A stretch of 64,000 nt of DNA from Gemmatimonadota bacterium (GTDB taxonomy: Bacteria > Gemmatimonadota > Gemmatimonadetes > Longimicrobiales > RSA9): the NCBI GenBank assembly GCA_040905425.1, contig JBBDRO010000032.1:93730-157729 (forward strand). The letters are read 5' to 3'. A model generated the notes under the pieces. The model was not told where the DNA came from, searched no databases, and was given only the letters and a program-made list of their open reading frames with translations. Shown one piece after another: positions 36,873 to 49,942 of the stretch. Within the stretch, counting starts at the first letter, position 1. Each line of letters starts with the position of its first letter. The position numbers were made by a program, and so were the translations under genes.

Positions 36873-37709
36873 TTGACAGAGGAGGACCCGCGGCGGCAAA
36901 CTGGTAGCAACCCCGTGGAATCAAACGCGCGTCGTGCCAGCGAGCTCGGGGCATCGGCAGGCCGTAGTGCCGTCGGTGCCGGAGGGGCCCGTGTGCTCGA
37001 CGTGCGTGATGACCACGACCATGACCGTATGATGGAGCAGCAGCGGATGCACGCGTCGGCAGGGCGCGCGTCGGCAGGCCCGGGTGAAACACCCTCCGGC
37101 CAACGCCGCAAGCGCTGGTTCGACGTGGGGCTGGCCGCGGTGGGGCTGGTCCTGTCCGCGCCACTCTGGCCGCTGGTGGCGGCGGCCGTGAAGCTGGAGG
37201 ATGGCGGGCCGGTGTTCTTCCGGCAGCGGCGCTGGGGATGGCGCGGCGAACGCTTCACGGCGCTGAAGTTTCGCACCATGAACCACGATGCCGACGCCAG
37301 TGGTGGCAGCCGGCCGGCCACGGTCGCGGACCCCCGGGTGACCCGGACAGGCCGGGTGCTGCGTGCCACCGGGCTCGACGAACTGCCGCAGCTGCTCCAC
37401 ATCCTGCGGGGGCAGATGAGCTTCGTGGGACCGCGTGCGCTGGCCGTCGATGAGCGTGTGCCGGATGCCGATGGCGTGCTGCGGCGGTATGAGGAGATCC
37501 CGGGGTTCGCCGAGCGGTTGCAGGTGAGACCGGGGCTGACGGGACATACCACGGTGCATCGGCCCAAGGACATGCCGGTGCGGGAGAAGTTTGCGGCCGA
37601 CGTGGCGTACGTGCGCAGTCGCACCTTTGCCGGTGATGTGGTGCTGGTAGCGCTTTCGTTGTGGATCAGTCTGCGCGGCCGCTGGGAGCACAGGGGAAGG
37701 AAGCTCTAG
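36873..37709 (+). CDS. Priming sugar (phosphoglycosyl) transferase, catalytic domain only
   Basis: KRWFDV...LKFRTM...DPRVT...LDELPQL..ILRGQMSFVGPR...RPGLTG. The true start may be ~37030-37047. Confidence 0.88.
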   Translation: MTEEDPRRQTGSNPVESNARRASELGASAGRSAVGAGGARVLDVRDDHDHDRMMEQQRMHASAGRASAGPGETPSGQRRKRWFDVGLAAVGLVLSAPLWPLVAAAVKLEDGGPVFFRQRRWGWRGERFTALKFRTMNHDADASGGSRPATVADPRVTRTGRVLRATGLDELPQLLHILRGQMSFVGPRALAVDERVPDADGVLRRYEEIPGFAERLQVRPGLTGHTTVHRPKDMPVREKFAADVAYVRSRTFAGDVVLVALSLWISLRGRWEHRGRKL

Positions 37710-37713
37710 GAAC

Positions 37714-38925
37714 ATGGAGGCGGCGGAAAGGCTTAGTGTGAAACAGCACTTCGATGTCGATTGCGTGGTCGTGGGCGGCTCGGCCTCGGGGCTCCGGGTG
37801 GCCGCGCTGCTGGCCGCGGGCGGTGCCCGCGTGCAGGTACTGGAGCGGCGGGCGGTCATCGGGGATCTGGAGCGCTCCTGGATCGTGACCGACGCCCTGA
37901 ATCCGGTGCTGGGCTACGACGCCGGCCCGGCCGTGGTCCATCGCACCGGCGTCATGCGGGTGCACGCTGCGGGGCGCCACGCGGACGTGCCGCTCCCCCG
38001 GGCGGACCTGATCGTGGAGCGCGCCCGCATGCTCCCGCTCCTGCGCGCCCGGGCCGAGGCGGCTGGAGCCGACATCCGGACGAACGCACGGGTAACCGGC
38101 ACGGTGCCGGCCGTTGGTGGCTACCGCGTGGAGGTGGAGGGCGGCACGGCGCCGATCCTGACCCGTCACCTGGTGGGTGCGGACGGGGTAAGCAGCGGCG
38201 TGGCCCGCGCGTTAGGTGCGCGGCCGAACCAGGCCGTGCCGGTTGTCCAGGCGCGGGTCCGTCTGCCCGCGGACTTGGACCCGGACGTCACCCACGTCTG
38301 GTTTCAGACACGGCGCACGCGCTTCTTCTACTGGCTGATTCCGGAATCCCCGGAAACGGCCGTGGTGGGGCTCATTGCCAACGGTGCGGGTCAGACCCGG
38401 GGCCCGCTCGACGCGTTCCTGGTCGAGGAGGGTTTCCAGCCGCTGGAGTACCAGGGGGCCATGATCCCGTTGCATCGGCCGCTGCGTCGCATTTCGTGGC
38501 GGCACGGCCGTGCCCGTGCGTTGCTCGTGGGAGACGCAGCCGCGCACGTGAAGGTGACCACGGTGGGCGGACTCGTGTCGGGTCTGTGGGGCGCCAACGC
38601 GGCCGCTCGGGCCCTGCTGGATGGTAAGTCCTACGGGCGTGAGTTGCGCGGCCTGCACGCGGAACTACACCTGCACGACCTCATGCGTTGGGCCCTGGAT
38701 CGCTTCACGGATGCGGATTACGGCCGGCTCGTGGACGCCATACCGGGACGGCTGGCGGACGCGCTGGGCAGCCACAACCGGGACAGTGTGGCAAGCGCGA
38801 AGTGGCATATCCTGAGCGCGCGTCCCGGGGTGCTGCTCCTGGCCGCACGCGCGCTGCTGCGCTTACCACGTGGTAACCATGAAGCCCCGCGGGGGTACCC
38901 ACTGGCACTCGAAGCGGGAGATTGA
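37714..38925 (+). CDS. FAD-dependent oxidoreductase (geranylgeranyl reductase-like)
   Basis: VVVGGSASG, VGADGVSS and LLVGDAAAHVKVTTVGG motifs. Confidence 0.8.
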   Translation: MEAAERLSVKQHFDVDCVVVGGSASGLRVAALLAAGGARVQVLERRAVIGDLERSWIVTDALNPVLGYDAGPAVVHRTGVMRVHAAGRHADVPLPRADLIVERARMLPLLRARAEAAGADIRTNARVTGTVPAVGGYRVEVEGGTAPILTRHLVGADGVSSGVARALGARPNQAVPVVQARVRLPADLDPDVTHVWFQTRRTRFFYWLIPESPETAVVGLIANGAGQTRGPLDAFLVEEGFQPLEYQGAMIPLHRPLRRISWRHGRARALLVGDAAAHVKVTTVGGLVSGLWGANAAARALLDGKSYGRELRGLHAELHLHDLMRWALDRFTDADYGRLVDAIPGRLADALGSHNRDSVASAKWHILSARPGVLLLAARALLRLPRGNHEAPRGYPLALEAGD

Positions 38926-39632
38926 CCATGACGGTTCGGGCCTGGATCCTGGGAGCCACCACGGCCGTCTGGCTCGTGGCCGCTGCCGGCGCGCCGCCGG
39001 TCGCCGGTCAGGTGACCACTCCGATCGCGCCGAATCCGGGCCTGGCCGAGAATTACGTCATCGGGGTGGGCAACGTGCTCCGCCTGGTGTTGCCCGACCG
39101 TGGCGCTTCGTACAGCGGTGACTACGTGGTCGAGGAGGACGGCATGGTCTACCTGCCGCCCTTCGGTGCCGTGGAGGTCGTGGGCCTGACGCTCCCGGAA
39201 TTGCGGGAGCGCCTGCGGACCGATTACCGAGCCCACTTTTCCAACGATCCCGCCGTGGTGGTCACGGTTATGGCCTATTTCATGGCGGCGGTGATGGGTG
39301 AGGTGGCCCAGCCTGGAAACTACCAGCTTCCCGCCGGCTCCACGTCGCTGCAGGCGGTCGCCGCCGCGGGCGGGTTCCGCGACAACGCCAATGAGCGCGG
39401 GACCTACCTGCTGCGCGGTCAGCAGCGCATCGAGCTGGGCGGCATGCCGGCGGACGATGACATGGACACCGAATCCGCCGCCTCGGTGGTGGCGGCGCTC
39501 GGCGCGCACGTGCTGAGTTCGGGGGATGCCGTGGTGGTGCCCCGGGCCAGTTTCACGTGGCTGACGGCAGGCAATCTGTTTACGCTGGCGCAATTCCTGG
39601 TGAGCGTCGTCACCCTGATACGGCTCTTCTGA
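38922..39632 (+). CDS. Polysaccharide export protein (Wza/OPX-like, with SLBB domain)
   Basis: Signal peptide. YVIGVGNVL..V.EDG...LP..G.V.V.GLTL.EL and V.GEV..PG.Y...A.A.AGG motifs. Confidence 0.85.
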   Translation: MTMTVRAWILGATTAVWLVAAAGAPPVAGQVTTPIAPNPGLAENYVIGVGNVLRLVLPDRGASYSGDYVVEEDGMVYLPPFGAVEVVGLTLPELRERLRTDYRAHFSNDPAVVVTVMAYFMAAVMGEVAQPGNYQLPAGSTSLQAVAAAGGFRDNANERGTYLLRGQQRIELGGMPADDDMDTESAASVVAALGAHVLSSGDAVVVPRASFTWLTAGNLFTLAQFLVSVVTLIRLF

Positions 39633-39648
39633 GCACGGGACAGTGGCC

Positions 39649-41997
39649 ATGACGAACCTGAACGGGCCTCCAGCCGGACCGGTACTGCCGGCGTCCGATG
39701 GCCCTGCCGCGCCACCGCGGGTGCGCGAGCATCTGCATGTCCTCAGGCGGCGCTGGTGGATCGTGGCGCTCGTGGCCGTGGCGCTCGTGGCGGGGTCCTG
39801 GTGGCGGCAGCGGGGGCAGGTGCCGCACTACCAGGCCGTGGCATCGGTGAAGACCTCTCCGTACGCGGGTGATTTTCTCAGTGGCGGTTATGCGGCTTGG
39901 TTGGCCAGTGATCCGGCCCAGCTGGCCACACAGGTGCGCATCATCCGCACCCAGGGCGTCCTCGCGCCTGTCGTGGATTCCCTGGGACTGCGCTTTCAGG
40001 TGGAGGGATCCGAATACCAGTTCCACGACGTAGTGGATCGTGCACTCGTGGCGCCGGGCGCACCATCGCAGGGCTATCAGTTGACTTCCGAGCAGGGCCT
40101 GATCGTGTTGCAGGAGCGGGGCACCGGGCGGACGGTGGACGTAGCCTCGGCCCATGTGCTGATCGGTCCCGGGCTGACCCTGTTCCTGAACCCGGACTTC
40201 ACTCCGCCGCAGCCGGTGGCAGTGGCGGTTGTCAGCGCCGACGCGGCGCTCGGGAGGCTGCGCGGCGGCCTGGATGCCTCCCTGGCCCGCAACAGCGTCC
40301 TCATCGACATCGCGTACACGTCGCCCGACTCCATCATGGCGGCGCGCGTGGCCCAGCAGGTGGCCGAGCAGTATCGGTGGCACGCCGGAGGAGAGCTGCG
40401 CCGGAAGGCTCAGGAAACGCTGGACCTGGTGCGCGCCCAACGTGCCGAGTTGGAAGGCACGATGAGCGAGCGGCTCACCGGCGGGTCGGGCGGCAGTTCC
40501 GTCGCGTCGATCTTCGAGCAGAATCTCATGGGCATCGGGGACGCGGAGGCGTCGGCCCGTACGTACGCGGGGCAGGCGGCGATCGTGAGCAGAGCGGTGG
40601 GCATCTATGAGAACACGGGCAACATCGCCGTCCTGACCGCGCTCGGCGAGTTAGTGCCCGGCGCCAGCAGCCTCTACGACCGCCTTGCCGTCCTGCAGCG
40701 GGACCGTCAGCAGGCCATCGAGGATCGCGGTCCGGGCCCGGCCGTGGCCACGTACGACACGCTCATCGTTGCCGCGCGCGATCAGCTGGCCGATCAGGCG
40801 GCGCAGCGGCTGCGTGTGCTCGAGCAGCAGGAGCAAGCGGCTGTGGCCGAGGCCATTCGGTTGCGGCGCGAACAGGACGCGCTCCGTCCCCAGGTGGCCG
40901 TCTCGCAGGGCGTGGACCGGGAGTTGCTGGCGCTCCAGGAGCGGCAGCGCATGCTCTACGAGGAGGAGTTTGAGGCGGAGGTCGAGGCGGCCATCGAGGG
41001 TAGCCCGGTCGAGATCGTCCAACCAGCCGTAGTACCCACGGTGCCGCTGCCCCAGCGTCGCACGCGGACCCTGCTCCTGTCGCTCGTGCTGGGGCTGGCG
41101 CTCGGCATGCTCGCCGCCTTGCTGCTGGAACAGCTCGACACCCGGGTGCGGGACCCGGAGGACGTGCAGCGGTCCGCGGGGGTCGGCGTGATCGGCTTGA
41201 TCCCCGCGCTGCGCGAATCGTCCGGGGGGCGGCCGCTGGCGCTCTCCCAGGCGGAGCAGCAGACGGCCGGTGCGGAAGCATTCCGCAAGCTGCGCACGAA
41301 CCTGCGCTTCATCCGCGCGGAGCGGCCGCAGGTGGTGGCCGTCACCAGCGCGGGCCCGCACGAGGGCAAGAGCGTGCTCTCCGCGAACCTTGCTCTTGCG
41401 CTCGTGCAGCAGCGCTCCCGGGTGCTCCTGGTGGACGGGGACCTGCGCCGTCCGGTGCAGCACACGATCTTCGGACTGAAGCGTGACCCGGGGCTGTCGG
41501 ACGTGCTGGTGGGCATCCTGCCGCCCACCCAGGCCATTCGCAAGGACGTGCAGATCCCCGGGCTCTACGTCATGCCCTGCGGCACCGAGGCGCCGAATCC
41601 GTCGGAACTACTGGGCAGCGAGGAGTTCGTGAATCTACTCAACCAGATGCGCAAGCATTTCGACACCATCATCCTGGACACACCGCCCGTGAACCTGGTG
41701 AGTGACGCCGCCATCGTATCCACGGTGGCCGATGGCACGCTGGTGGTGGTGGACGCCGGCCGCACGGATCGGCACGTGCTGGCCAGTGCCGTGAACGAAT
41801 TGCGGCAGGCGCGGGCCACCCTGCTGGGGGTGGTGCTGAACCGGGTCGACAGCCGGTCGGCCTATGGATACGGATACGGACGCTTCGGACGCTATTATCG
41901 CTCGGGGTACTACAAGACCGAATCCGCGGCCAACGGGGACCGGGAGTGGCGGGAGACGCTCGACTCGCTGTGGCAACAGGTCTCCCCCTACGTCTGA
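39649..41997 (+). CDS. Polysaccharide co-polymerase / BY tyrosine kinase (Wzc-like)
   Basis: Two TM helices and a coiled coil. EAFRKLRTN, TSAGPHEGKS, LVDGDLRRP and DTPP motifs. C-terminal Tyr cluster YGYGYG..YY..YY. Confidence 0.93.
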   Translation: MTNLNGPPAGPVLPASDGPAAPPRVREHLHVLRRRWWIVALVAVALVAGSWWRQRGQVPHYQAVASVKTSPYAGDFLSGGYAAWLASDPAQLATQVRIIRTQGVLAPVVDSLGLRFQVEGSEYQFHDVVDRALVAPGAPSQGYQLTSEQGLIVLQERGTGRTVDVASAHVLIGPGLTLFLNPDFTPPQPVAVAVVSADAALGRLRGGLDASLARNSVLIDIAYTSPDSIMAARVAQQVAEQYRWHAGGELRRKAQETLDLVRAQRAELEGTMSERLTGGSGGSSVASIFEQNLMGIGDAEASARTYAGQAAIVSRAVGIYENTGNIAVLTALGELVPGASSLYDRLAVLQRDRQQAIEDRGPGPAVATYDTLIVAARDQLADQAAQRLRVLEQQEQAAVAEAIRLRREQDALRPQVAVSQGVDRELLALQERQRMLYEEEFEAEVEAAIEGSPVEIVQPAVVPTVPLPQRRTRTLLLSLVLGLALGMLAALLLEQLDTRVRDPEDVQRSAGVGVIGLIPALRESSGGRPLALSQAEQQTAGAEAFRKLRTNLRFIRAERPQVVAVTSAGPHEGKSVLSANLALALVQQRSRVLLVDGDLRRPVQHTIFGLKRDPGLSDVLVGILPPTQAIRKDVQIPGLYVMPCGTEAPNPSELLGSEEFVNLLNQMRKHFDTIILDTPPVNLVSDAAIVSTVADGTLVVVDAGRTDRHVLASAVNELRQARATLLGVVLNRVDSRSAYGYGYGRFGRYYRSGYYKTESAANGDREWRETLDSLWQQVSPYV

Positions 41998-42004
41998 GGT
42001 CGGC

Positions 42005-42295
42005 GTGCTGCGCGTGAGCGACGATTGTGTGGTCCGGGCCGCCCCGACGCAGGTATCGGCCGATCTCGAGGGGGAGGCGGCCGTGCTGGACACGCTGAGC
42101 GGCGTCTACTGGGGTCTGGACGAGGTGGGCGCGGCCGTCTGGCGGCATCTGCGCGAGCCCGTCAGTGTGCTCCGCCTGCGCGATGCCCTGCTGAGCGAAT
42201 TCAACGTGGACCGTGCAGCGTGCGAGCGAGATCTGCTCGGCTTCCTGATGGAACTGCGGGAGGCGGGGCTGCTCGAAGTGACCACGCTGGGTTGA
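42005..42295 (+). CDS. RiPP recognition element (PqqD family), lasso peptide B1
   Basis: 96 aa: 'SADLEGEAAVLD...GVYWGLDEVGAAVW..L....SV..L...L..EF.V.....E.DL..FL.EL...GLL'. GAGG RBS 7 bp after the wzc stop. Confidence 0.92.
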   Translation: MLRVSDDCVVRAAPTQVSADLEGEAAVLDTLSGVYWGLDEVGAAVWRHLREPVSVLRLRDALLSEFNVDRAACERDLLGFLMELREAGLLEVTTLG

Positions 42296-42305
42296 ACGGC
42301 CAGTC

Positions 42306-43310
42306 TCACCCCTCCAGGAACGCCACCAGGGGGTGGTCCGGCTGACTGCGGGTCGGCTGTCCGAACCCCGCGGCGAGCAATAGCTCGGCCACGGTCCCCG
42401 TCTGCCACTCCGCCGCCTGCAGGGCGAGTACCCCACCCGGCTGGAGGTACTCCGCGGCCCGCGGAATGAAACCCCGCAGCAACGCCAGGCCGTCCTGACC
42501 GCCTCCGCTCATGGTCTCCGCCGGCGCGAGCCAGAGGCGGCCACGGGCACGTTCCGCCGCCAGTAACACGGGTGGGAGCCAGGGCAGGTTGGCCGCGATC
42601 AGGTCCACCGTTCCAGCAAGCTCCCGGGGCAGCGGCTCCAGCAAAGACCCCCGCAGGAAGACGGCCCGCTGCAGGTCGAGTCGTCGTGCGTTGGCGCGGG
42701 CGGCCCGGCATGCGCGCGCGGAGGTGTCCGTGCCCCAGACCCGGGCGCGTGGCCGGTAACGCGCCAGCGCCAGGGCCACCGCCCCGCCGCCCGTCCCCCC
42801 GTCCACGGCGCGGGTCTCCCTGTCCGGATCCAGGTGGGCGAGCGCCGTCTTTGCCAGCAGTTCCGTGGTGGGGTTGGGCGCGAAGACGCCGGGCGGGATG
42901 ATCAGGTCAAGGTCCATGAAATGTACGCTGCGCCGGCGTTGCCCGGCCAGGCCAGCACGCAGCAGGGCCGCGATATGGTGGAGGCCATACTGCGCGCGGG
43001 CGGCCCATGGCGCCCCTACACCGATGGGTATCAGCTCGAGCGGCACGCCCTCCCTGATGAGGGCGGCGTCGGCCGGGTCCGCTGAGGGCTGCCAGCCCGC
43101 GGCGCGCAACGCCGCCCGGGCGGGGAGCAGCGCCGCCACCGCCACCTCCACGCGAATCTTCTCCGGATCCTCGGGCGTACGCGCTTCCACCCCCGCGGCG
43201 CGCAGGGCAGCGGCGGCCACCCTCCGCTCGGCACGAACGCGGAGCTGCCACGCCGCCCGCAATCGTGGCAGCGAGAAGCCGGAAGATTCCGGGGAGGCGG
43301 TGTGGGTCAT
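42306..43310 (-). CDS. PrmC/HemK-like SAM methyltransferase with atypical N-terminal domain
   Basis: GVFAPNPTTELL, VDGGTGGGAVALALA, GTDTS, ANLPW (an NPPY variant) and GG.DGL motifs. Confidence 0.85.
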   Translation of the reverse strand: MTHTASPESSGFSLPRLRAAWQLRVRAERRVAAAALRAAGVEARTPEDPEKIRVEVAVAALLPARAALRAAGWQPSADPADAALIREGVPLELIPIGVGAPWAARAQYGLHHIAALLRAGLAGQRRRSVHFMDLDLIIPPGVFAPNPTTELLAKTALAHLDPDRETRAVDGGTGGGAVALALARYRPRARVWGTDTSARACRAARANARRLDLQRAVFLRGSLLEPLPRELAGTVDLIAANLPWLPPVLLAAERARGRLWLAPAETMSGGGQDGLALLRGFIPRAAEYLQPGGVLALQAAEWQTGTVAELLLAAGFGQPTRSQPDHPLVAFLEG

Positions 43311-43371
43311 GATCGGCCAAGGAGCTCGGGTGGCGTTGACCTGAGCGGGCATTTCAAGCTACCGTCCATGC

Positions 43372-43824
43372 ATGCCCTCGCGCACCCCACCCCGCGCCGC
43401 CGAAAGGTGGCCGTTGCGCCGCCTGCTGGCACTGCCACGGATCGAGCGGCGGCTGCTGCTGCGCGCTGCGTGCGCACTATTCCTGGCCCGACGCGCGCTC
43501 CACCCGGTTCGTCGGCGTACGCCATCCCTCCTGGAAACGCGACCGGTGGTGTCCGGTAGGGTGGCCGGTGTCGAACCCGTGGCCGTGGCACTTGCGGTGA
43601 GCCGCGCCGGCCGTTATCTGCCGGGCGAGTGGACCTGCCTCGAGCAGGCGCTGGCGGGGCGCACCCTGCTTGCGGCGTTTGGCAGATCTTCCCGGGTGCG
43701 GCTCGGAGCCGCACGCTCCGCCCCCGGCGGGCAGCGCTTCCATGCCTGGCTCGAATGTGATGGGGTCGTGGTTCTGGGCGGCGATCAGCCGCGCGCCTAC
43801 GTGCCGCTGGACGCACGGCCCTGA
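43372..43824 (+). CDS. Lasso peptide leader peptidase B2 (transglutaminase-like)
   Basis: TCLEQALA (catalytic Cys), VRLG and FHAWLECDG (catalytic His) motifs. 150 aa. Confidence 0.92.
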   Translation: MPSRTPPRAAERWPLRRLLALPRIERRLLLRAACALFLARRALHPVRRRTPSLLETRPVVSGRVAGVEPVAVALAVSRAGRYLPGEWTCLEQALAGRTLLAAFGRSSRVRLGAARSAPGGQRFHAWLECDGVVVLGGDQPRAYVPLDARP

Positions 43825-43859
43825 GGGCCCTCCCTGCGCGCCACGCCACCGGCGCGCCC

Positions 43860-45008
43860 GTGAATCCCACCGATCACCTGCCCCTGCTCGCGGCCGCCGC
43901 GGCCCCGGGTGCCGCCGCGCGGGTGCGCTTCCACCGCCTGGCCGGGTCACTGGATCCGGAGCAGTGGCCTGCGGTGCTCGATGCCGCGGAGCGCCACCGG
44001 CTGCGTCCGCTGCTCCACCGTGCGCTCCAACGTACGACCGGCCTGGTCCCTTTTGCGGCGCAGGAATCCCTGGCCGAGGCGGTGCGCCACGACGCCGTCC
44101 TGGCGCTGGCCGCGCTCCGCGAGGGCCGGGCGGCGGCCGCGCTCCTGGCAGAGGCGGGAATCGCCTCGCTGGCGCTGAAGGGGCCGGTGCTGGCGTGCGC
44201 CCTCCACGGGGACCCTGCGCTGCGTGCCGCCGGGGACTTCGACCTGCTGGTGGCGCGGCGCCATGCCGCCCGCGCCGGCGCGCTGCTGGCCGACGGGGGC
44301 TGGGCGTGCGCCGTTCACCTGACGCCCCGGATGGCCGCCTCCCACTTGCGCACGCAGCATGAGCTGCCGTTTCGCCGGGGCGCGGCGCCCGTCCTGGAAC
44401 TCCACTGGGCCGTGGCCCAGCGGCACTGGGCGGTGCCGCTCGCGGCCGAGGCACTCCTGACGCGTGCACAGCCGGCGGGCCCGGGAGAAGCCTTCGGCCA
44501 GCCGAGCACGGAGGACCGGCTCCTGCTGGCGTGTATCCACGGGGCGCGGCACCGCTTCGCCACGCTGGACCTGCTCGCGGACGTGGCGGGCTGCGTGGCC
44601 CTCGGCGGCATCGACTGGAACAGGCTGTGGGCGGAAGCGGAGCGCGCGGGGGTGCGGCGCATTGTGGCCGTGGCGCTGGCCGTGGCGGAGCGCACCATGG
44701 ACGCCCGCCTGCCTGCCGCGGCCGGACGGCCGTTGTCGATAGATCGGACCGGAGGCCTGCTGGCCGCGCGGGCCGCGGAGCGCCTCGAGCGGGGCGTCGG
44801 CCCCGTGACCGGGTGGCGCGGGTTACGGGCCGAGTTGCTACTGCGCGAGCGCCGCGCGGACCGGGTACGCCGCCTGGGGCGGCTCGCGCTCACCCCTACC
44901 GCCGGGGACTGGGGCTGGGTGCGCCTGCCGGACCCCCTCCATCCGCTCTACCACGCGCTCCGTCCGGTCCGCCTGCTGGGTGTGGCCTGGGGTCGTCTGC
45001 GCAGCTGA
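43860..45008 (+). CDS. Nucleotidyltransferase (NTP_transf_5 family), lasso-cluster associated
   Basis: LALKGPVL, R..GDFDLLV, LELHW and C.HG.RH....L..L.D motifs. Confidence 0.88.
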   Translation: MNPTDHLPLLAAAAAPGAAARVRFHRLAGSLDPEQWPAVLDAAERHRLRPLLHRALQRTTGLVPFAAQESLAEAVRHDAVLALAALREGRAAAALLAEAGIASLALKGPVLACALHGDPALRAAGDFDLLVARRHAARAGALLADGGWACAVHLTPRMAASHLRTQHELPFRRGAAPVLELHWAVAQRHWAVPLAAEALLTRAQPAGPGEAFGQPSTEDRLLLACIHGARHRFATLDLLADVAGCVALGGIDWNRLWAEAERAGVRRIVAVALAVAERTMDARLPAAAGRPLSIDRTGGLLAARAAERLERGVGPVTGWRGLRAELLLRERRADRVRRLGRLALTPTAGDWGWVRLPDPLHPLYHALRPVRLLGVAWGRLRS

Positions 45009-45016
45009 GGACGCGC

Positions 45017-45967
45017 TCAGCGCTCTGCCGGCACCTCCACCAACGCCGCCACCCGCGCGGCAAAGCCCGGCAGCAACTCCAGTCCCCGGGGCGGCCGGGC
45101 GTGCCACACGGGAATCCGTGCCGCGCAGGCGGCGGCGGCCAGTTGACGGCGCAGGCGGTCCGGGTCCGTGACCACCCGGTTGAAGGTGGCCGCGAGGAGT
45201 GCGCGGACCGCCTGCCCCCCCCGGACCCGCTCGGGCGGGCCGCCCCTGTCCCCGGGGAGAGCGAGTGTCACCCATGCCCGGAGCGGCACGTCCGTCCGCA
45301 CGGCGCGGGGCACGGCGTACGCCCGCTTGGCGCTGTCCGGATGGAGGAGGACGCTGGCGCTTGACGGCAGTCCCAGAAGCAGCTCCGCAGCCTCCGGAAA
45401 CAGCTTCAAGCGCGCGGGTCCGGCGCGGGCCATCCGGCTGCCGGGGGCCAGCACCAGGACATCATCCGTCACGAGCCGGCCGCCGGCGGCCAGGAGCGCC
45501 GCGGCCAGCGTGGACTTGCCCACGCCCGGGGGGCCGGTGAGCGCCACGGCTCCCGCAGGCAGTGCCACCACCGTGGCGTGATAGGGCTCCAGGCCGCGTG
45601 CCACGAGGGAGAAGGACAGGAGCTGGGCATAGAGGTAGCCCGCCAGGGCGGCAGGCGCCGCGGGGGCCAGCGGGGCCACGCGGAGGCGGGCTCCGGCCGG
45701 GTCCGTGCGCGCCAGCAGCAGGTCGCGCCAGCGGAGCAGGAAGCCACCGTCCGCCGTGTCCTGCCAGGCCGCGTCCCCCATGACCCGCCACGCATCGTTC
45801 GTCGGCTGCAACCCCGCCGCCGGCACGGCGCGGATCACCACGTCCGGAGGGCCCTCCTCGAAAGCGGCGTCGGGGAAGGGCCACGGGCTCTCCACGGAGA
45901 GGCCGTAGACGCGGAAGCGGTGGGCGGCTGAAGGCGGACGGGGTGCGGACGTTGCGGGACGCCTCAG
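45017..45967 (-). CDS. HPr-kinase-like Ser/Thr kinase (lasso tailoring)
   Basis: FRVYGL N-terminus, YHATVV, Walker A GPPGVGKST, LVTDD. Start uncertain (CTG 45967 or GTG 46078). Confidence 0.85.
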   Translation of the reverse strand: MRRPATSAPRPPSAAHRFRVYGLSVESPWPFPDAAFEEGPPDVVIRAVPAAGLQPTNDAWRVMGDAAWQDTADGGFLLRWRDLLLARTDPAGARLRVAPLAPAAPAALAGYLYAQLLSFSLVARGLEPYHATVVALPAGAVALTGPPGVGKSTLAAALLAAGGRLVTDDVLVLAPGSRMARAGPARLKLFPEAAELLLGLPSSASVLLHPDSAKRAYAVPRAVRTDVPLRAWVTLALPGDRGGPPERVRGGQAVRALLAATFNRVVTDPDRLRRQLAAAACAARIPVWHARPPRGLELLPGFAARVAALVEVPAER

Positions 45968-46143
45968 AAGCGCGTGAACCCGCCGCCGGTCTTGGAGGGC
46001 TGCTCCTTGCTGGCGCCGCCCCCGCCGCGGGTGAGTTCCGCCAGGTCCCCCCAGCGCGTCAGGGTCGGCCGGACCCACGGCTTGAGCGGACGCTCCGGGC
46101 CGGGGGATGCCTCACGCGCCGGCGGTTCGGGTGCTTCGGCCAT
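45964..46143 (-). CDS. Lasso peptide precursor (59 aa)
   Basis: MAEAPEPPAREASPGPERPLKPWVRPTLTRWGDLAELTR|GGGGASKEQPSKTGGGFTRF. WxxPxL..xG....T(-2) leader, Gly1 and Glu8. GGAG RBS. Starts 2 bp after the cyclase stop. Confidence 0.9.
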   Translation of the reverse strand: MAEAPEPPAREASPGPERPLKPWVRPTLTRWGDLAELTRGGGGASKEQPSKTGGGFTRF

Positions 46144-46145
46144 GC

Positions 46146-48038
46146 TCACTCCAGGGGATCCGACGTGACGAAGGCGCGCAGCCAGAGCTCCAGGCCCAGG
46201 GCCGCGAGGAGCGGAGCCGCGGCGCGCGTACGTCCAATTTCGCTGGCCGCGTGCAGCCGCGCCAGTTCCGCGTCCAGTCCGGCGGTGTCCAGGTAGCCGG
46301 CCCGCACGGCTGCGCCGTGGCTCAGCAGGCGCGCGAGTGGCTCGGCGGCCCCGGCCATGGCTGCATGAAACAGACCGGTGGCGTTGCCCTTGTCGCGGCG
46401 GGCCAGGATGGCGTCGGGCACGATGCCCCGCAGCCCGTCCCGCAGGATGCCCCGGGGGACCCCCTGCGGTGCCGCGGCCGTGCCGGGAAGCCCCGCCAGG
46501 AAGACCAGCAGGTCCTCGTCGGCGAAGGGCGGCAGGAGCGTGAGGCCGTGCGCGGCGCATCCCTTGACGCCCCATTCCATACGCAGCGTGTTGAAGGGCA
46601 GTCGCACCGCTTCCAGGACGGCTGCGCCGTGGGAGCTGATGCCGCGTACGGCCGCCGCTTGCCGGTCGCCGGTGCCCGCTGGCGCGGCCGCATCCGGCGG
46701 CGTCGGGCTGGTCCCATGCGGCAGCCGTGCCGCGCGGAGGCGCTCACCCCAGAGGGAGCTGCCCTTCCGCCGCTGTCGGAGCGGTGCCAGCAGTGCCCGG
46801 CGCGCCCGCAGCAGACGTCCGGGCAGCAGCTGGCGCGCCAGTTCCTCCAGTGCGGCCCGATGCAGCACGGCGGCGGGGACGTCCGCGTGCCAGCGCGGCA
46901 TCTCCAACAGGTGCCGCGCCAGGGTGGGAAGCCGCCCGGCGCGGAGCAGTTCGGCCAGGTAGGCGGGCGGATTCGGAAACAGCACCTGGTCCCCGAGTCC
47001 GCCGGACAGGATGATTGCCGCCCCGTGCTCGCGGGCCGCCGTGAGCGCACGGGTGGCCGGGCCGGGGGCAAAGCCCACTGCCGGTGCCTCGCTCTCCAGG
47101 ACCTCGTCCATGGACTCGGCCGGAAAGCCGCCCGGCTCCGCCGGCACGCGTATCACCGCCTCACCCCAGCGCTCCTCCAGGACCCGGAGCCAGGCTGTCT
47201 CATCGGCCGCCGAGCCGTCCGCGGTGCCGTGATAGACGCCGAAGGCCGGCGGGAAGCGCGCAGGATCGCGGGCGTGCAGCATGCGCGCCACGCTGTAGAC
47301 GGCGGACGAGTCGATGCCGCCGGAGAGCAACACGGCCACCGGTGCGGGACCCACCAGGCGGCGGGCGACCGCCGCTACGAAACGATCGCGGAACGAGATG
47401 GCCGCGGCTGCCGGATCCAGTTGCAGGGCCGGGACCTGAAACGCCCGCGCCCGATCGATGTTCAGGCCCCGTTCGTGGGCCAGCAGATAGTGGCCGGGGG
47501 GCAGCGCCCGGACCTCCTTCAGGAACGTGACCGAGGCCGGGAAGGTACGCGTGCCCAGGAAGAGTTCGGCCAGCGCGGGGTCATCCGGCGTGCGGTCCAC
47601 CGCGCCGTGCGCCAGCACGGCCCGCACGGTCGTGGCGAACACCACGCCTCCCGGTAGCTCCGCCCAGTAGAGCGGCCGGGTGCCGACCAGGTCTCTGGCC
47701 AGCAGCAGCCTACCGTCGGCGATCACGGCCAGGGCATAATCACCGCGCAGCTCCGCGGCGAGCGTCGCGCCGCTCGTGCGCAGCGCGGCGGGCAGGGAGT
47801 CGGCCGCGCCCGCCAGGCGGCCCGAGAGTGCCCACGCCTCCCCTGGCTGAGCCGTCCCTACGGATGACGGTCCGTTGCTCCAACCGCTCCACGGACCGGG
47901 GGCAGTGGCCAGGCCCGCACCGGGCAGCAAGGCGATGCCGGCTGCCGATCCGCCTGGCAGAGCCGCGGCCATGCGCTCGAGTGCGGCGGGGTCCACGGCC
48001 CGGCCGTGGCCGTACCAGATGCCTGCGAATGCGCTCAA
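46146..48038 (-). CDS. Lasso peptide cyclase (asparagine synthetase-like, C protein)
   Basis: Starts MSAFAGI with no Ntn Cys. RDLVGTRPLY, LLSGGIDSS, LSGGLGDQ, PF.D..L and R.ILR....G.VPD.I..R.DK motifs. Adjacent to the precursor. Confidence 0.9.
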   Translation of the reverse strand: MSAFAGIWYGHGRAVDPAALERMAAALPGGSAAGIALLPGAGLATAPGPWSGWSNGPSSVGTAQPGEAWALSGRLAGAADSLPAALRTSGATLAAELRGDYALAVIADGRLLLARDLVGTRPLYWAELPGGVVFATTVRAVLAHGAVDRTPDDPALAELFLGTRTFPASVTFLKEVRALPPGHYLLAHERGLNIDRARAFQVPALQLDPAAAAISFRDRFVAAVARRLVGPAPVAVLLSGGIDSSAVYSVARMLHARDPARFPPAFGVYHGTADGSAADETAWLRVLEERWGEAVIRVPAEPGGFPAESMDEVLESEAPAVGFAPGPATRALTAAREHGAAIILSGGLGDQVLFPNPPAYLAELLRAGRLPTLARHLLEMPRWHADVPAAVLHRAALEELARQLLPGRLLRARRALLAPLRQRRKGSSLWGERLRAARLPHGTSPTPPDAAAPAGTGDRQAAAVRGISSHGAAVLEAVRLPFNTLRMEWGVKGCAAHGLTLLPPFADEDLLVFLAGLPGTAAAPQGVPRGILRDGLRGIVPDAILARRDKGNATGLFHAAMAGAAEPLARLLSHGAAVRAGYLDTAGLDAELARLHAASEIGRTRAAAPLLAALGLELWLRAFVTSDPLE

Positions 48039-48270
48039 GGGCCGTGGGGTTCGGGGGCACGTCTGCCCTGCGGCAGCAGCGTGCCGCAAGGGTACGCCGG
48101 GTACGCCCGCCGCGAAAGCGTCGGGCAGGCGGCAGGTGGCGGAAATCCGGCAATACGGGGTCCGCCGCCGGTGGACGCGCGTCGGGTGCCGACGTACGGA
48201 AGCGCCGCCCGGTCCTCCGGACGACGCCCCGTTCTCCCACGGCGGCCGTGGCCGTCGCTCCCCGGGAGGG

Positions 48271-48990
48271 TTACTGGATAATGAGCGGCAGGATGGTGGA
48301 GCGGGCCTGCTCCAGAGTGATGGAGCTTGGAGCAGTCTCCACGACCGGCTCGCCGTTTCCGGCCAGGCCAACGCCAATCAGGAAGGCAGCGGCCACCAGC
48401 GCTGTGGCTGCGACTGCCTGCACGCGGCGATAGCGAGGGCGGGGGCGGCGCGGGCTCGCCTCCATCAGCAGCACCACCGGACGCGGCGGCTCGGCACGTA
48501 ACGCGGCCGCCCCGAAGGTGGCCACCGACCACGACTCATCGACCCGCTCACCGGTCAGCGGCTCGTCCTCCGAGGGCAGCATCGTGACGCAGCCGGCCGT
48601 GGTCAGGTCGCGGCCGCGGGTGATGCCCGCCACCAGCGCGTCGAGCTCGAAGAGCTGGAACGGCTTGAGCAGGTATCCGGCCGCACCCTGCTCGAGCGCG
48701 CGGCGCGCGGTGGCCTCGTCCGTGTCCCCGGTGACGAAGACCACCGGCTGTTCCGGAACCTGCTCGTGAATGAAGCGTGCGAGTGCCACCCCTGATTCCC
48801 CGGGCAGGTGGATATCCGTCACCACGAGGTCGAAGCGGGGGGTGTGGTCCGGAAAGGAACGCTGCGCCGTGGCCGCGTCGCCTGCCTCAGCCACATCGAA
48901 GCCGTTGCGGACGAAATGGCGCACGAGCAACCGGCGCACGGCCGTATCGTCCTCCACGATGAGAATGCGGCGTTGCCGTGACTCGATCAT
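48271..48990 (-). CDS. Response regulator: receiver domain plus C-terminal TM segment
   Basis: ILIVEDD, DLVVTDIHLPGESG, VTG and YLLKPF motifs, then VAATALVAAAFLIGVGLAG. Confidence 0.85.
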   Translation of the reverse strand: MIESRQRRILIVEDDTAVRRLLVRHFVRNGFDVAEAGDAATAQRSFPDHTPRFDLVVTDIHLPGESGVALARFIHEQVPEQPVVFVTGDTDEATARRALEQGAAGYLLKPFQLFELDALVAGITRGRDLTTAGCVTMLPSEDEPLTGERVDESWSVATFGAAALRAEPPRPVVLLMEASPRRPRPRYRRVQAVAATALVAAAFLIGVGLAGNGEPVVETAPSSITLEQARSTILPLIIQ

Positions 48991-49055
48991 GCTGACACTC
49001 TTCCCGTGGAAGGGGATGGATGCCGCCGGAAGCGGCGCGATTGATACGTATCTAT

Positions 49056-49071
49056 TGCCAGGTGCGTGCCC
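49056..49071 (-). promoter_or_regulatory. Putative sigma54 promoter
   Basis: GGGCACGCACCTGGCA (GG-N10-GC, GGCACG intact), ~65 bp upstream of the response regulator. Confidence 0.5.
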
Positions 49072-49255
49072 GAGCTCACCGATGCTTCGGAGCCGTTGCG
49101 GCGCAGGGGTTATCATCGAATCCTCGCTGCCCGGCGGCGGCCCCGGGTATGTTCAAAATCCGGACGTCCCCGGTAGTATGCAGCGTGGAGATCAGTGAGG
49201 ACGCCACGAAATAGACACATGTCCGATAACCGGATACTGTAGGGAATCCATACAC

Positions 49256-49942
49256 ATGCACATCGTCGCCACCGATCTGCTCACGTGTCCGCGTTGCGGA
49301 CCTTCGTTCGGCCTCATCCTGCTGGCCGACAGGGTCAGCGAGCGGCGCGTGCTCGCAGGTATGCTGGGCTGCTCGAACTGCAGGGAGCGCTGGCCCATCA
49401 CCGGCGGTCTGGCGCGGCTGGGTACGGGGGTCGCGCCATGGGCGGAAGGTGCGCGGGGGGACGCGCCGGGCCGCCCGCCCGGGCACGCGCGGCCCCGCGT
49501 CCCTCTGGATGGCGACGCTCACGCCGGCGGCGCCGATGCGGACTCCGGCGGCACCTGGGCGGCGCTCATGGGTGTGACCCAGGGGCCGGCCTTCGTCCTG
49601 GTGGCGGGCGGGGCCGTGGCGGTGGCCGGCGCCGTCGCGGACCTGGTCGAGCGATTGGAGGTGCTGGCGGTGGGACCCGGCGCGGCGGACCTGCCCGAGC
49701 GCGCCGGGGTGAGTCGGTTGGAGGCCGGCGCCCGCCTGCCACTGGCCACAGGGAAGATTGCGGCCGCCACGCTGACCGGGCCCGCGGCGGATGCCTGGCT
49801 CGAGGAAGCCTCCCGCGCCCTGCGGCCCACCGGCCGGCTGGTGCTCTCCCCTGTGCCCCTGGATGCCGATGCCCGGCTGGCGGCCGCAGGCTGCAGGGTC
49901 ATGGCGCGCGAAGCCACCACGTTGATCGCACTCCGGGAGTAA
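49256..49942 (+). CDS. Trm112-like zinc-binding domain plus degenerate methyltransferase-like domain
   Basis: DLLTCPRCG...GMLGCSNCRERWPITGG, then RLPLA...LEEASRALRPTGRLVL. Confidence 0.65.
   Translation: MHIVATDLLTCPRCGPSFGLILLADRVSERRVLAGMLGCSNCRERWPITGGLARLGTGVAPWAEGARGDAPGRPPGHARPRVPLDGDAHAGGADADSGGTWAALMGVTQGPAFVLVAGGAVAVAGAVADLVERLEVLAVGPGAADLPERAGVSRLEAGARLPLATGKIAAATLTGPAADAWLEEASRALRPTGRLVLSPVPLDADARLAAAGCRVMAREATTLIALRE

Follow-up and report, generated by a model that had tools for sequence, protein, structure and literature searches.

A PrmC-like methyltransferase with a predicted nucleotidyltransferase-derived domain in a lasso peptide gene cluster of Gemmatimonadota

The albusnodin acetyltransferase is a lysine-modifying enzyme of a lasso peptide gene cluster. 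The lasso peptide methylations covered in the accessible parts of reviews are all O-methylations, which either form a C-terminal ester (LasF/StspM) or act on Asp and lead to an aspartimide (enzymes of the protein isoaspartyl methyltransferase (PIMT) type) (PMC9266682, PMC8498205, PMC11285071, PMC13352647). Pseudomycoidin receives hexoses on its phospho-Ser from the nucleotidyltransferase PsmN, whose family (PF14907, NTP_transf_5) is also known to occur fused to the B2 leader peptidase, according to the available text of PMC9266682 and PMC8498205. Here we describe a PrmC-like methyltransferase gene that lies between the B1 and B2 genes of a lasso cluster, in a stretch of 64,000 nucleotides (hereafter, the window) from contig JBBDRO010000032.1 of a Gemmatimonadota bacterium (GCA_040905425.1). 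With a probability of about 0.6, we predict from its sequence that the product is a two-domain S-adenosylmethionine (SAM)-dependent N-methyltransferase whose dedicated substrate is the cluster's lasso peptide. It would be a tailoring methyltransferase of a new family with a new predicted chemistry, and not a new kind of system.

As a SAM-dependent tailoring enzyme encoded in a lasso cluster, the predicted protein resembles LasF/StspM and TceM/LihM (PMC9266682, PMC8498205 and PMC13352647, as far as these texts are accessible). However, LasF/StspM (C-terminal carboxyl O-methyltransferases) and TceM/LihM (PIMT-type) belong to other methyltransferase families and use oxygen acceptors. Neither PF00891 nor PF01135 (PCMT) is matched by the cluster methyltransferase at E ≤ 0.1, and its homolog P0002 reaches only sub-threshold scores for both (20.7 bits against a cut-off of 22.3 and 16.5 bits against a cut-off of 20.3, respectively). 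An earlier note on this DNA had likewise set the proposed modification apart from those of the known O-methylating and aspartimide-forming lasso methyltransferases. The methyl group predicted here also differs from the acyl group transferred by GelT and the albusnodin acetyltransferase, which are acetyl-CoA-dependent Gcn5-related N-acetyltransferases. What the enzyme would share with GelT of gelatinamin (accessible part of PMC13178200) is that a lasso peptide is modified on a Lys side chain by an enzyme of its own cluster. The names HemK and PrmC are absent from a 2024 review of the methyltransferases of RiPPs (peptides that are made by the ribosome and modified after translation). Our literature search, which did not extend to subscription-only papers and supplements, found no paper joining a lasso peptide with a glutamine methyltransferase or with PF14907; a search on lasso peptide lysine methylation returned nothing related, and a fusion of PF14907 with a methyltransferase was not found in print. 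To our knowledge, no lasso peptide has been characterized from Gemmatimonadota. If our assignment is correct, this would be the first case of a lasso peptide N-methylated on a side chain, and a PrmC-derived N-methyltransferase would bring peptide engineering a modification and an enzyme family that are both new.

A PrmC/HemK-type catalytic domain apart from the housekeeping enzyme

The methyltransferase gene (42306..43310, minus strand) encodes 334 residues from the gene-caller start at 43310, and its product is identical to P0001. An in-frame ATG at 43352 would give a longer open reading frame (ORF; 42306-43352, minus strand) of 348 residues, with 14 additional residues at the N-terminus. The gene is convergent with B1, the two stop codons being 10 bp apart, and divergent from B2, at a distance of 19-61 bp; these coordinates and strands bear out the antisense insertion between B1 and B2 that had been described from the letters alone. 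The same description placed PrmC/HemK motifs in the C-terminal ~200 residues, with NLPW replacing NPPY, which the profile match and the motifs given below confirm.

The catalytic domain, a class I SAM methyltransferase domain of the PrmC/HemK type, comprises residues 129-334 (42306..42926 including the stop codon, minus strand) and matches the PrmC profile TIGR03534 with an E-value of 3e-35. The score of 121.9 bits is below the cut-off of 199.1 bits, and the match covers only profile positions 52-238 of 253. Scores for TIGR00536 (99.7 bits; cut-off, 115.5) and TIGR03704 (88.8 bits; cut-off, 248.8) are also below their cut-offs, and the Pfam match in this domain is MTS (E = 1e-09). The nearest PDB chains in sequence are those of Thermotoga maritima HemK (1sg9/1nv8, E = 2.5e-16 over residues 130-303) and Escherichia coli HemK (E = 1.8e-13, extending to residue 317). 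An AlphaFold2 (AF2) model of the catalytic domain has predicted local distance difference test (pLDDT) values mostly above 90, with lower values (64-84 in blocks) at about residues 250-270. In a Foldseek search with this model, PrmC ranks at the top (2b3t, E = 2.7e-13; 1vq1), followed by HEMK2/KMT9 and PrmA, and further neighbors include a carbamoyl N-methyltransferase and aminoglycoside N-methyltransferases; the top-ranked neighbors all act on nitrogen.

Motif I, the SAM-binding glycine loop, reads DGGTGGG (42783..42803, minus strand), and T173, G174 and G176 are invariant in an alignment of 30 sequences. In the PrmC/HemK enzyme class, motif IV holds the amide or amine nitrogen. Its counterpart here, the equivalent of NPPY in the pocket for the acceptor nitrogen, reads NLPW (42579..42590, minus strand). 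The Rossmann fold, the glycine loop of motif I and an N-x-P-aromatic motif IV, which define the HemK family in the broad sense, are thus all present. NLPW occurs in all four members of the clade of this enzyme, and NVPY in all three members of its sister clade (see below). Among the 33 non-fused sequences of our tree, which are PrmC-like by search and not each verified as PrmC, 21 have NPPY, nine have NLPY and three lack N.P[YWF] altogether. One of the NLPY enzymes (L007:9758-10576, plus strand), from a Solirubrobacterales genome, is the product of a gene immediately following one for a release factor. The first Pro of NPPY therefore seems dispensable in apparently ordinary PrmC enzymes, and the change from Pro to Leu is not distinctive, since NLPY is found in nine of these 33 sequences, one of them beside a release-factor gene. 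On the other hand, the Trp of NLPW is, as far as these alignments go, a clade-specific change.

A prmC gene typically, though not universally, lies next to a class I release-factor gene. We found such a gene on contig C100 of the same genome, directly downstream of, and overlapping the end of, a release-factor gene with PCRF and RF-1 domains. Its product scores 251.4 bits with TIGR03534, above the cut-off, and has PrmC_N (E = 2.9e-21) and NPPY. The earlier note had proposed looking for a separate canonical prmC in this position, and the cluster gene is consequently not the sole prmC of the genome. Like PrmC/HemK (2B3T/1T43; 1NV8/1SG9/1VQ1), the cluster methyltransferase keeps the catalytic fold, the SAM motifs and the Asn and second Pro of motif IV. 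Unlike these enzymes, it falls below the full-profile cut-off, has no PrmC_N (PF17827), carries NLPW for NPPY and adjoins no release-factor gene, its neighbors being lasso B1 and B2, in a genome that has its own canonical copy. The cluster methyltransferase is not the housekeeping release-factor enzyme.

The N-terminal domain and its fused relatives

The N-terminal domain (residues 1-128; 42927..43310, minus strand) takes the place that PrmC_N occupies in canonical PrmC. It probably originates from a PF14907-like nucleotidyltransferase, and hhalign and ESM Atlas comparisons point to a truncated fold of this type without the catalytic motifs. Aligned by hhalign with six PF14907 proteins, the N-terminal domains of four family members gave a probability of 59%, an E-value of 9.3e-5 and a score of 36.2; with seven PF14907 proteins, the probability was 66.6% and the E-value 5.4e-5. 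The alignment joins residues 16/19-78 of the N-terminal domain with residues 76/79-153 of the nucleotidyltransferases, which is the very stretch that the earlier note had listed as parallel to the neighboring nucleotidyltransferase. The score of 36.2 was reached by none of 100 column-permuted templates (maximum, 20.3) and by none of 100 templates permuted in 15-column blocks (maximum, 35.1), and a reversed template scored 15.0. The same N-terminal domains aligned with 16 PrmC N-terminal regions gave a probability of 3.3% over 14 columns. In the ESM Atlas, all ten structure neighbors shown for residues 1-128 are clusters of the nucleotidyltransferase fold (PF14907, DUF2204, Aminoglyc_resit, AbiEii and DUF6036), eight of which list PF14907. 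They have template modeling (TM) scores of 0.53-0.60 across 75-97 residues, and two of them reach the bar for naming PF14907. Both lines of comparison thus point to a nucleotidyltransferase-like fold, the lack of which had been named as a finding that would speak against a chimeric origin. Modeled alone by AF2 from an alignment of four sequences, the domain is α/β (pLDDT 72.7), with helices at residues 14-38, 58-70, 79-83 and 100-128 and strands at residues 53-56, 73-76 and 89-95.

The KG (hG[GS]) and DxD motifs are absent from the cluster protein and from P0002, just as had been noted for the former, while the homolog in genome G472 keeps 'LSG' and one Asp. Because both motifs are lost, the N-terminal domain cannot be an active nucleotidyltransferase. 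By these alignments it would share with the lasso PF14907 proteins (PsmN and the product of the neighboring gene) an alignable series of a helix, a strand, the DxD strand, a helix ending in GW and a 'veLH' strand, but it differs from them in its size (~100 residues versus ~250), in the loss of KG and DxD and in its fusion to a methyltransferase. We propose that it would be a shortened, catalytically dead derivative of the PF14907 fold; the active nucleotidyltransferase encoded two genes away is of this family as well. A chimeric tailoring enzyme, as suggested earlier, would then combine a PrmC-type catalytic domain with this decayed domain, and the comparisons above support such an architecture.

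The fusion is rare in the sequences searched. A word-indexed protein search returned 64 proteins, of which only P0002 (83% identity) covers the whole length of the query; the remaining 62 cover 24-80% of it, and PrmC_N is listed for all of these except P0005, P0010, P0018 and P0020. P0005 and P0010 are metagenome proteins of 425-427 residues with NVPY and a longer N-terminus. Residues 1-128 were also compared exhaustively by phmmer with 1.84 billion representatives; apart from two low-complexity fragments, P0002 (78% identity in this region) was the only match. Further full-length homologs are those of G472 (34% identity) and G016, an unpublished genome (33%). Full-length members with NLPW are found in G000 and G016 among the 41 genomes of relatives and in G000, G016 and G472 among the 201 genomes of the order sample, and a full-length match in one of the 401 genomes of the phylum sample (G000). 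Several candidates were rejected. The fourth match in the order sample, in G021, is a canonical PrmC adjoining a release-factor gene; G022 and G010 have PrmC-sized ORFs (295 and 290 residues) that align to the catalytic domain only; the match in G004 is an antisense low-complexity artifact within another gene; and scans of genome contigs and of metagenome contigs gave one locus each, both canonical PrmC.

Among 401 genomes searched from another phylum, G911 alone has a full-length homolog. This phylum is probably Actinomycetota, since it is also that of the Solirubrobacterales genome mentioned above. The G911 protein (457 residues) has a Pfam match to PF14907 at residues 20-171 (E = 8.8e-5; 22.6 bits, cut-off 31.2), keeps a DLD motif and has NVPY as motif IV. 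When the N-terminal domains of the three sister proteins were aligned with PF14907 proteins by hhalign, the probability was 95.6% and the E-value 1.2e-8 over 168 collinear columns. We also built a maximum-likelihood tree from the methyltransferase domains (40 rows, three further rows having been left out for lack of a BLAST match after ORF extraction). It places the seven fused proteins on one side of a branch (ultrafast bootstrap, 96; Shimodaira-Hasegawa-like approximate likelihood ratio test, 83). They are on one side in 96% of the bootstrap trees and fall into two clades, one with NVPY and one with NLPW. With its PF14907-like N-terminal domains, the sister clade is a third line of evidence for a PF14907 origin of the N-terminal domain of the cluster enzyme. 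The simplest reading of these sequences is a single fusion event, which would have been followed by decay and shortening of the N-terminal domain in the Gemmatimonadota clade. The G911 protein also has a match at 0.99 to a 50-member cluster in the ESM Atlas; three of these members are of known phylum, with Actinomycetota the commonest among them. This cluster flags an uncharacterized group of fused proteins.

Lasso gene linkage, the methyl acceptor and competing explanations

The linkage to lasso genes is seen outside the window as well. In G016, a 367-residue homolog with NLPW is encoded ~1.7 kb from a PF14907 gene (E = 8.1e-52), which is followed by an HprK-like gene and a homologous precursor gene, up to the end of the contig. 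What separates the methyltransferase gene from the nucleotidyltransferase gene is not B2 but a secreted-looking ORF. In G911, a 48-residue ORF with a YxxPxIx3Gx5T leader motif (a candidate precursor), an Asn-synthase-type cyclase gene and ABC transporter genes come after the fused gene in the same orientation. A PF14907 gene and a B2 gene are ~6-7 kb off, and no HprK-like gene is seen in the 20 kb examined. A gene that never co-occurs with lasso genes would have argued for another role, as the earlier note had pointed out; the window and G016 both have lasso genes beside it, and so does the G911 locus of the sister clade. In G472, the lasso cluster is split between contigs C248 (cyclase and precursor) and C168 (the 3' part of an HprK-like gene, the PF14907 gene and B2). 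A precursor of the type GGGG..E8..TRF is found at E ≤ 2e-10 in G000, G016 and G472 and in none of the 198 other genomes of the order sample, and these are the same three genomes that encode the full-length NLPW enzyme.

We then compared the peptide cores. The window precursor (59 residues; 45964..46143, minus strand) has the leader motif WxxPxLx3Gx5TR and a predicted 20-residue core, GGGGASKEQPSKTGGGFTRF. It is identical to P0072 and has 86% and 59% identity to P0073 and P0074, whose cores are GGGGASKEQPSKSGGAFTRF and GGGGTLKEQPSKGGSTFTRF, respectively. The G472 core is GGGGTLREPITKRRTRF, and the 16-residue core of G016 keeps G1-4, E8, P-S-K and the C-terminal TRF, with its only Gln at position 13. 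The five clade cores are basic, and G1-G4, Glu8, a Pro, [S/T]-Lys and the C-terminal Thr-Arg-Phe are invariant in them. Gln and Asn are both absent from the G472 core and from the G911 candidate core, and Arg is absent from the latter. Lys is consequently the sole nitrogen-bearing side chain common to all six cores (five from the clade and one candidate from the sister clade). We tentatively favor the Lys of the [S/T]-K element, Lys12 in the window core, as the acceptor, at somewhat less than even odds. HEMK2/KMT9 (N6AMT1)-TRMT112, the second-best structural neighbor of the catalytic domain (6kms, 9fke), offers an analogy: HEMK2 methylates both Gln and Lys and, for Lys, prefers Ser or Thr directly before it, according to the accessible text of PMC10804810, a preference that resembles the conserved [S/T]-K of the cores. 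Unlike the present enzyme, HEMK2/KMT9 is eukaryotic/archaeal, requires Trm112, has NPPY and has no nucleotidyltransferase-like domain.

The earlier note had proposed N-methylation of Gln9, beside the ring-forming Glu8, or of a Lys. An enzyme that keeps the PrmC chemistry and N5-methylates Gln9 would agree with TIGR03534 being the best match, the PrmC family being Gln N5-methyltransferases, and with the conservation of Gln9 in the three closest cores (window, P0073 and P0074). It is nevertheless unlikely to be right, as judged from the cores: two of the six are devoid of Gln and Asn, the Gln of G016 is displaced to position 13, and a GGQ-like context is found in none of them. Thus, the Gln9 part of the proposal is not supported, while the Lys part fits better, a Lys after Ser or Thr being invariant in the five clade cores. 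The core comparison gives a sharp prediction, a mass shift of +14 Da on Lys12 versus Gln9.

For the N-methyltransferase dedicated to the lasso peptide, the following mechanism can be envisaged. PrmC_N docks PrmC on release factors, a contact seen in the 2B3T complex. In the cluster enzyme, a dead nucleotidyltransferase domain would stand in place of this release-factor docking domain and might itself serve as a docking module, bringing the peptide or prepeptide, or the neighboring nucleotidyltransferase and kinase machinery, to the catalytic domain. Such a role is plausible because PrmC_N contacts the release factor and because active members of the nucleotidyltransferase fold act on lasso peptides. 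The methyl group would then be transferred to the ε-amino group of Lys12 in the [S/T]-K element. This would be a case of a domain swap that retargets an enzyme, the docking domain for the release factor having been exchanged for a dead copy of another tailoring enzyme of the same pathway. It is possible, if doubtful, that the protein is the founding member of a lasso tailoring family in at least two phyla, in which a dead PF14907 docking domain is combined with a PrmC catalytic domain retargeted to [S/T]-Lys.

Several observations weigh against the assignment. BLASTP of the N-terminal domain against the neighboring nucleotidyltransferase gives a best E-value of 0.55, and a Pfam search with this domain finds no match at E ≤ 10, PF14907 and PrmC_N included. 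With its AF2 model, Foldseek returns no PDB entry at E ≤ 0.001 (best E = 0.12), and VIA-align yields generic α/β matches, the best (Z = 6.3) to cap domains of HAD phosphatases; nucleotidyltransferase-fold chains (ANT(2''), GrpB and URT1) stand at Z = 4.6-4.9, within the background. A first full-length AF2 model, made with an alignment including canonical PrmCs, had an all-helical N-terminal domain, and was rejected as unreliable (pLDDT 33-70). The hhalign comparison of the N-terminal domain of the NLPW clade with that of the sister clade is not significant (score 14.5, with 5 of 60 permutations as high). Regarding the linkage, a third contig of G472 (C428) carries the methyltransferase gene, at a distance of 1.1 kb to the contig end, and the gene upstream of B2 in this genome is a GGDEF/EAL gene. 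The three genomes in which enzyme and precursor co-occur are of one family, so they are not independent. A search with the neighboring nucleotidyltransferase gave a best non-self match of 34% identity and no close ortholog, implying that the 33-kb contig of P0002 may lack one. Finally, the choice of Lys rests on six cores, one from an unpublished genome and one from a candidate precursor, and it assumes the same type of acceptor for all of the enzymes.

Another explanation, with which we reckon little, is that the acceptor would not be an amino-acid side chain but a moiety attached by the kinase or nucleotidyltransferase (phosphate, nucleotide base or amino sugar), which the dead domain would recognize. 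The HprK-like and PF14907 genes are in the same locus in the window and in G016, and both are also encoded by the G472 genome. Enzymes with (D/N)PP(Y/F/W) include methyltransferases of base amino groups. Homologous nucleotidyltransferases add hexoses to phosphorylated Ser in pseudomycoidin (PMC9266682, PMC8498205), and the HemK-family enzyme AprI N-methylates an aminoglycoside amine (PMC9338882), as stated in the available parts of these papers. However, the clade cores end in Phe and not in the C-terminal Ser of the known cases, and the examined part of the G911 locus is devoid of an HprK-like gene.

It is also quite improbable that the methyltransferase is a self-immunity enzyme. In that role it would methylate either a cellular target of the peptide (a translation factor or rRNA) or, in the peptide itself, a key Lys, so that the peptide stays inactive in the producer. 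The basic cores are compatible with this idea: the ribosome is the target of basic class V lasso peptides, and self-resistance is conferred by GelT through acetylation of a key Lys (PMC11451635 and PMC13178200, in their accessible parts). There is weak, sub-threshold similarity to rRNA methyltransferases (NpmA, 27 bits with a cut-off of 60; RsmC 2pjd, E = 6.6e-6), and no exporter gene is seen in the annotated stretch 36873-49942. On the other side, the best matches are protein N-methyltransferases and not rRNA enzymes, and the N-terminal domain comes from a family acting on lasso peptides. The form of this explanation in which the peptide is inactivated requires the same chemistry as the dedicated lasso peptide N-methyltransferase and overlaps with it.

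An unrelated housekeeping or orphan PrmC paralog located in the cluster by chance, for which the G472 gene lying off the cluster contigs and the divergent orientation in the window could be cited, is highly improbable, given that the presence of the enzyme matches the precursor type (three of three genomes versus 0 of the 198 others in the order sample) and that the adjacency is seen again in G016 and, in the case of the sister clade, also in the other phylum.

The lasso cluster and its surroundings

The G+C content of the window around the methyltransferase locus is ~70-77%. The cluster has the full set of a split-B lasso cluster: a precursor with the leader motif and a Thr at position -2, B1 with a RiPP recognition element (RRE), the B2 protease and the cyclase C. 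B1 (PqqD/RRE; 41864..42295, plus strand) matches PF05402 at residues 72-137 (E = 7.7e-16) and scores 56.9 bits with NF033536 (lasso_PqqD_Bac; cut-off, 80); the ORF overlaps the Wzc-like gene upstream, which makes a true start later than 41864 probable. The B2 leader peptidase (43372..43824, plus strand) scores 63.6 bits with NF033537 (cut-off, 33) and matches PF13471 (E = 1.8e-16). The PF14907 nucleotidyltransferase (43860..45008, plus strand; E = 2e-45, 155.7 bits) has both KG and DxD. The lasso cyclase (asparagine synthase-like; 46146..48377, minus strand) matches PF00733 (E = 2.5e-34) and NF033535 (E = 4.4e-38; 131 bits, cut-off 525), and 3 nt separate its stop codon from the precursor ATG. 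The first ~190 residues of its 743-residue ORF have no domain match, and the start of this ORF is probably over-extended. A scan for promoters and terminators in 41500-48800 gave no signal above that of shuffled sequences. The sequencing runs on record comprise five of DNA, from two studies, and none of RNA.

The HprK-related kinase has a P-loop and, as its longest ORF, occupies 45017..46078 on the minus strand. It matches TIGR04352 (HprK_rel_A; E = 1.4e-09; 37.5 bits, cut-off 200) and PF07475 (E = 3.9e-05). Its true start is probably downstream of 45964 (gene 45017-~45960), because the longest ORF overlaps the whole precursor gene. The clade cores end in Thr-Arg-Phe and not in the C-terminal Ser that is phosphorylated in paeninodin and pseudomycoidin; the conserved Ser/Thr before Lys and the Thr of TRF are candidate targets of the kinase. 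In the order, there are other precursors with Ser or Thr as the last residue.

The gene directly upstream of B1 (39643-41997, plus strand) is Wzc-like, with Wzz, GNVR and a P-loop, and the polysaccharide genes in 36873-41997 comprise a sugar transferase gene, a polysaccharide-export gene and this Wzc-like gene. In the G911 locus, of the other phylum, a Wzz/AAA_31 gene (L074:15105-16757, plus strand) is likewise directly upstream of the PF14907 gene. The recurrent adjacency of polysaccharide-export genes and lasso/nucleotidyltransferase genes may not be due to chance. Secreted or lipoprotein-looking ORFs stand beside the PF14907 gene in G016 (L016:5152-6570, plus strand, with a weak match to DUF7305, E = 1.4e-5) and in G472 (L081:549-1670, minus strand), and no equivalent is seen in the window cluster.

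Trm112-type proteins are partners of HemK2-type enzymes. A 228-residue ORF in the window (49256-49942, plus strand) has an N-terminal CPRC...CSNC motif that looks like a zinc ribbon and by eye resembles Trm112-type proteins; a Pfam search with this ORF gave no match at E ≤ 0.01. Precursors of lasso type that are unrelated to that of the window, sharing only the common leader motif, are found in other genomes of the order (L036, L037-L040 and L045), with cores ending, for example, in ...QTMT or ...PPPS. Their occurrence in several genomes suggests that lasso clusters are common in this order of Gemmatimonadota.

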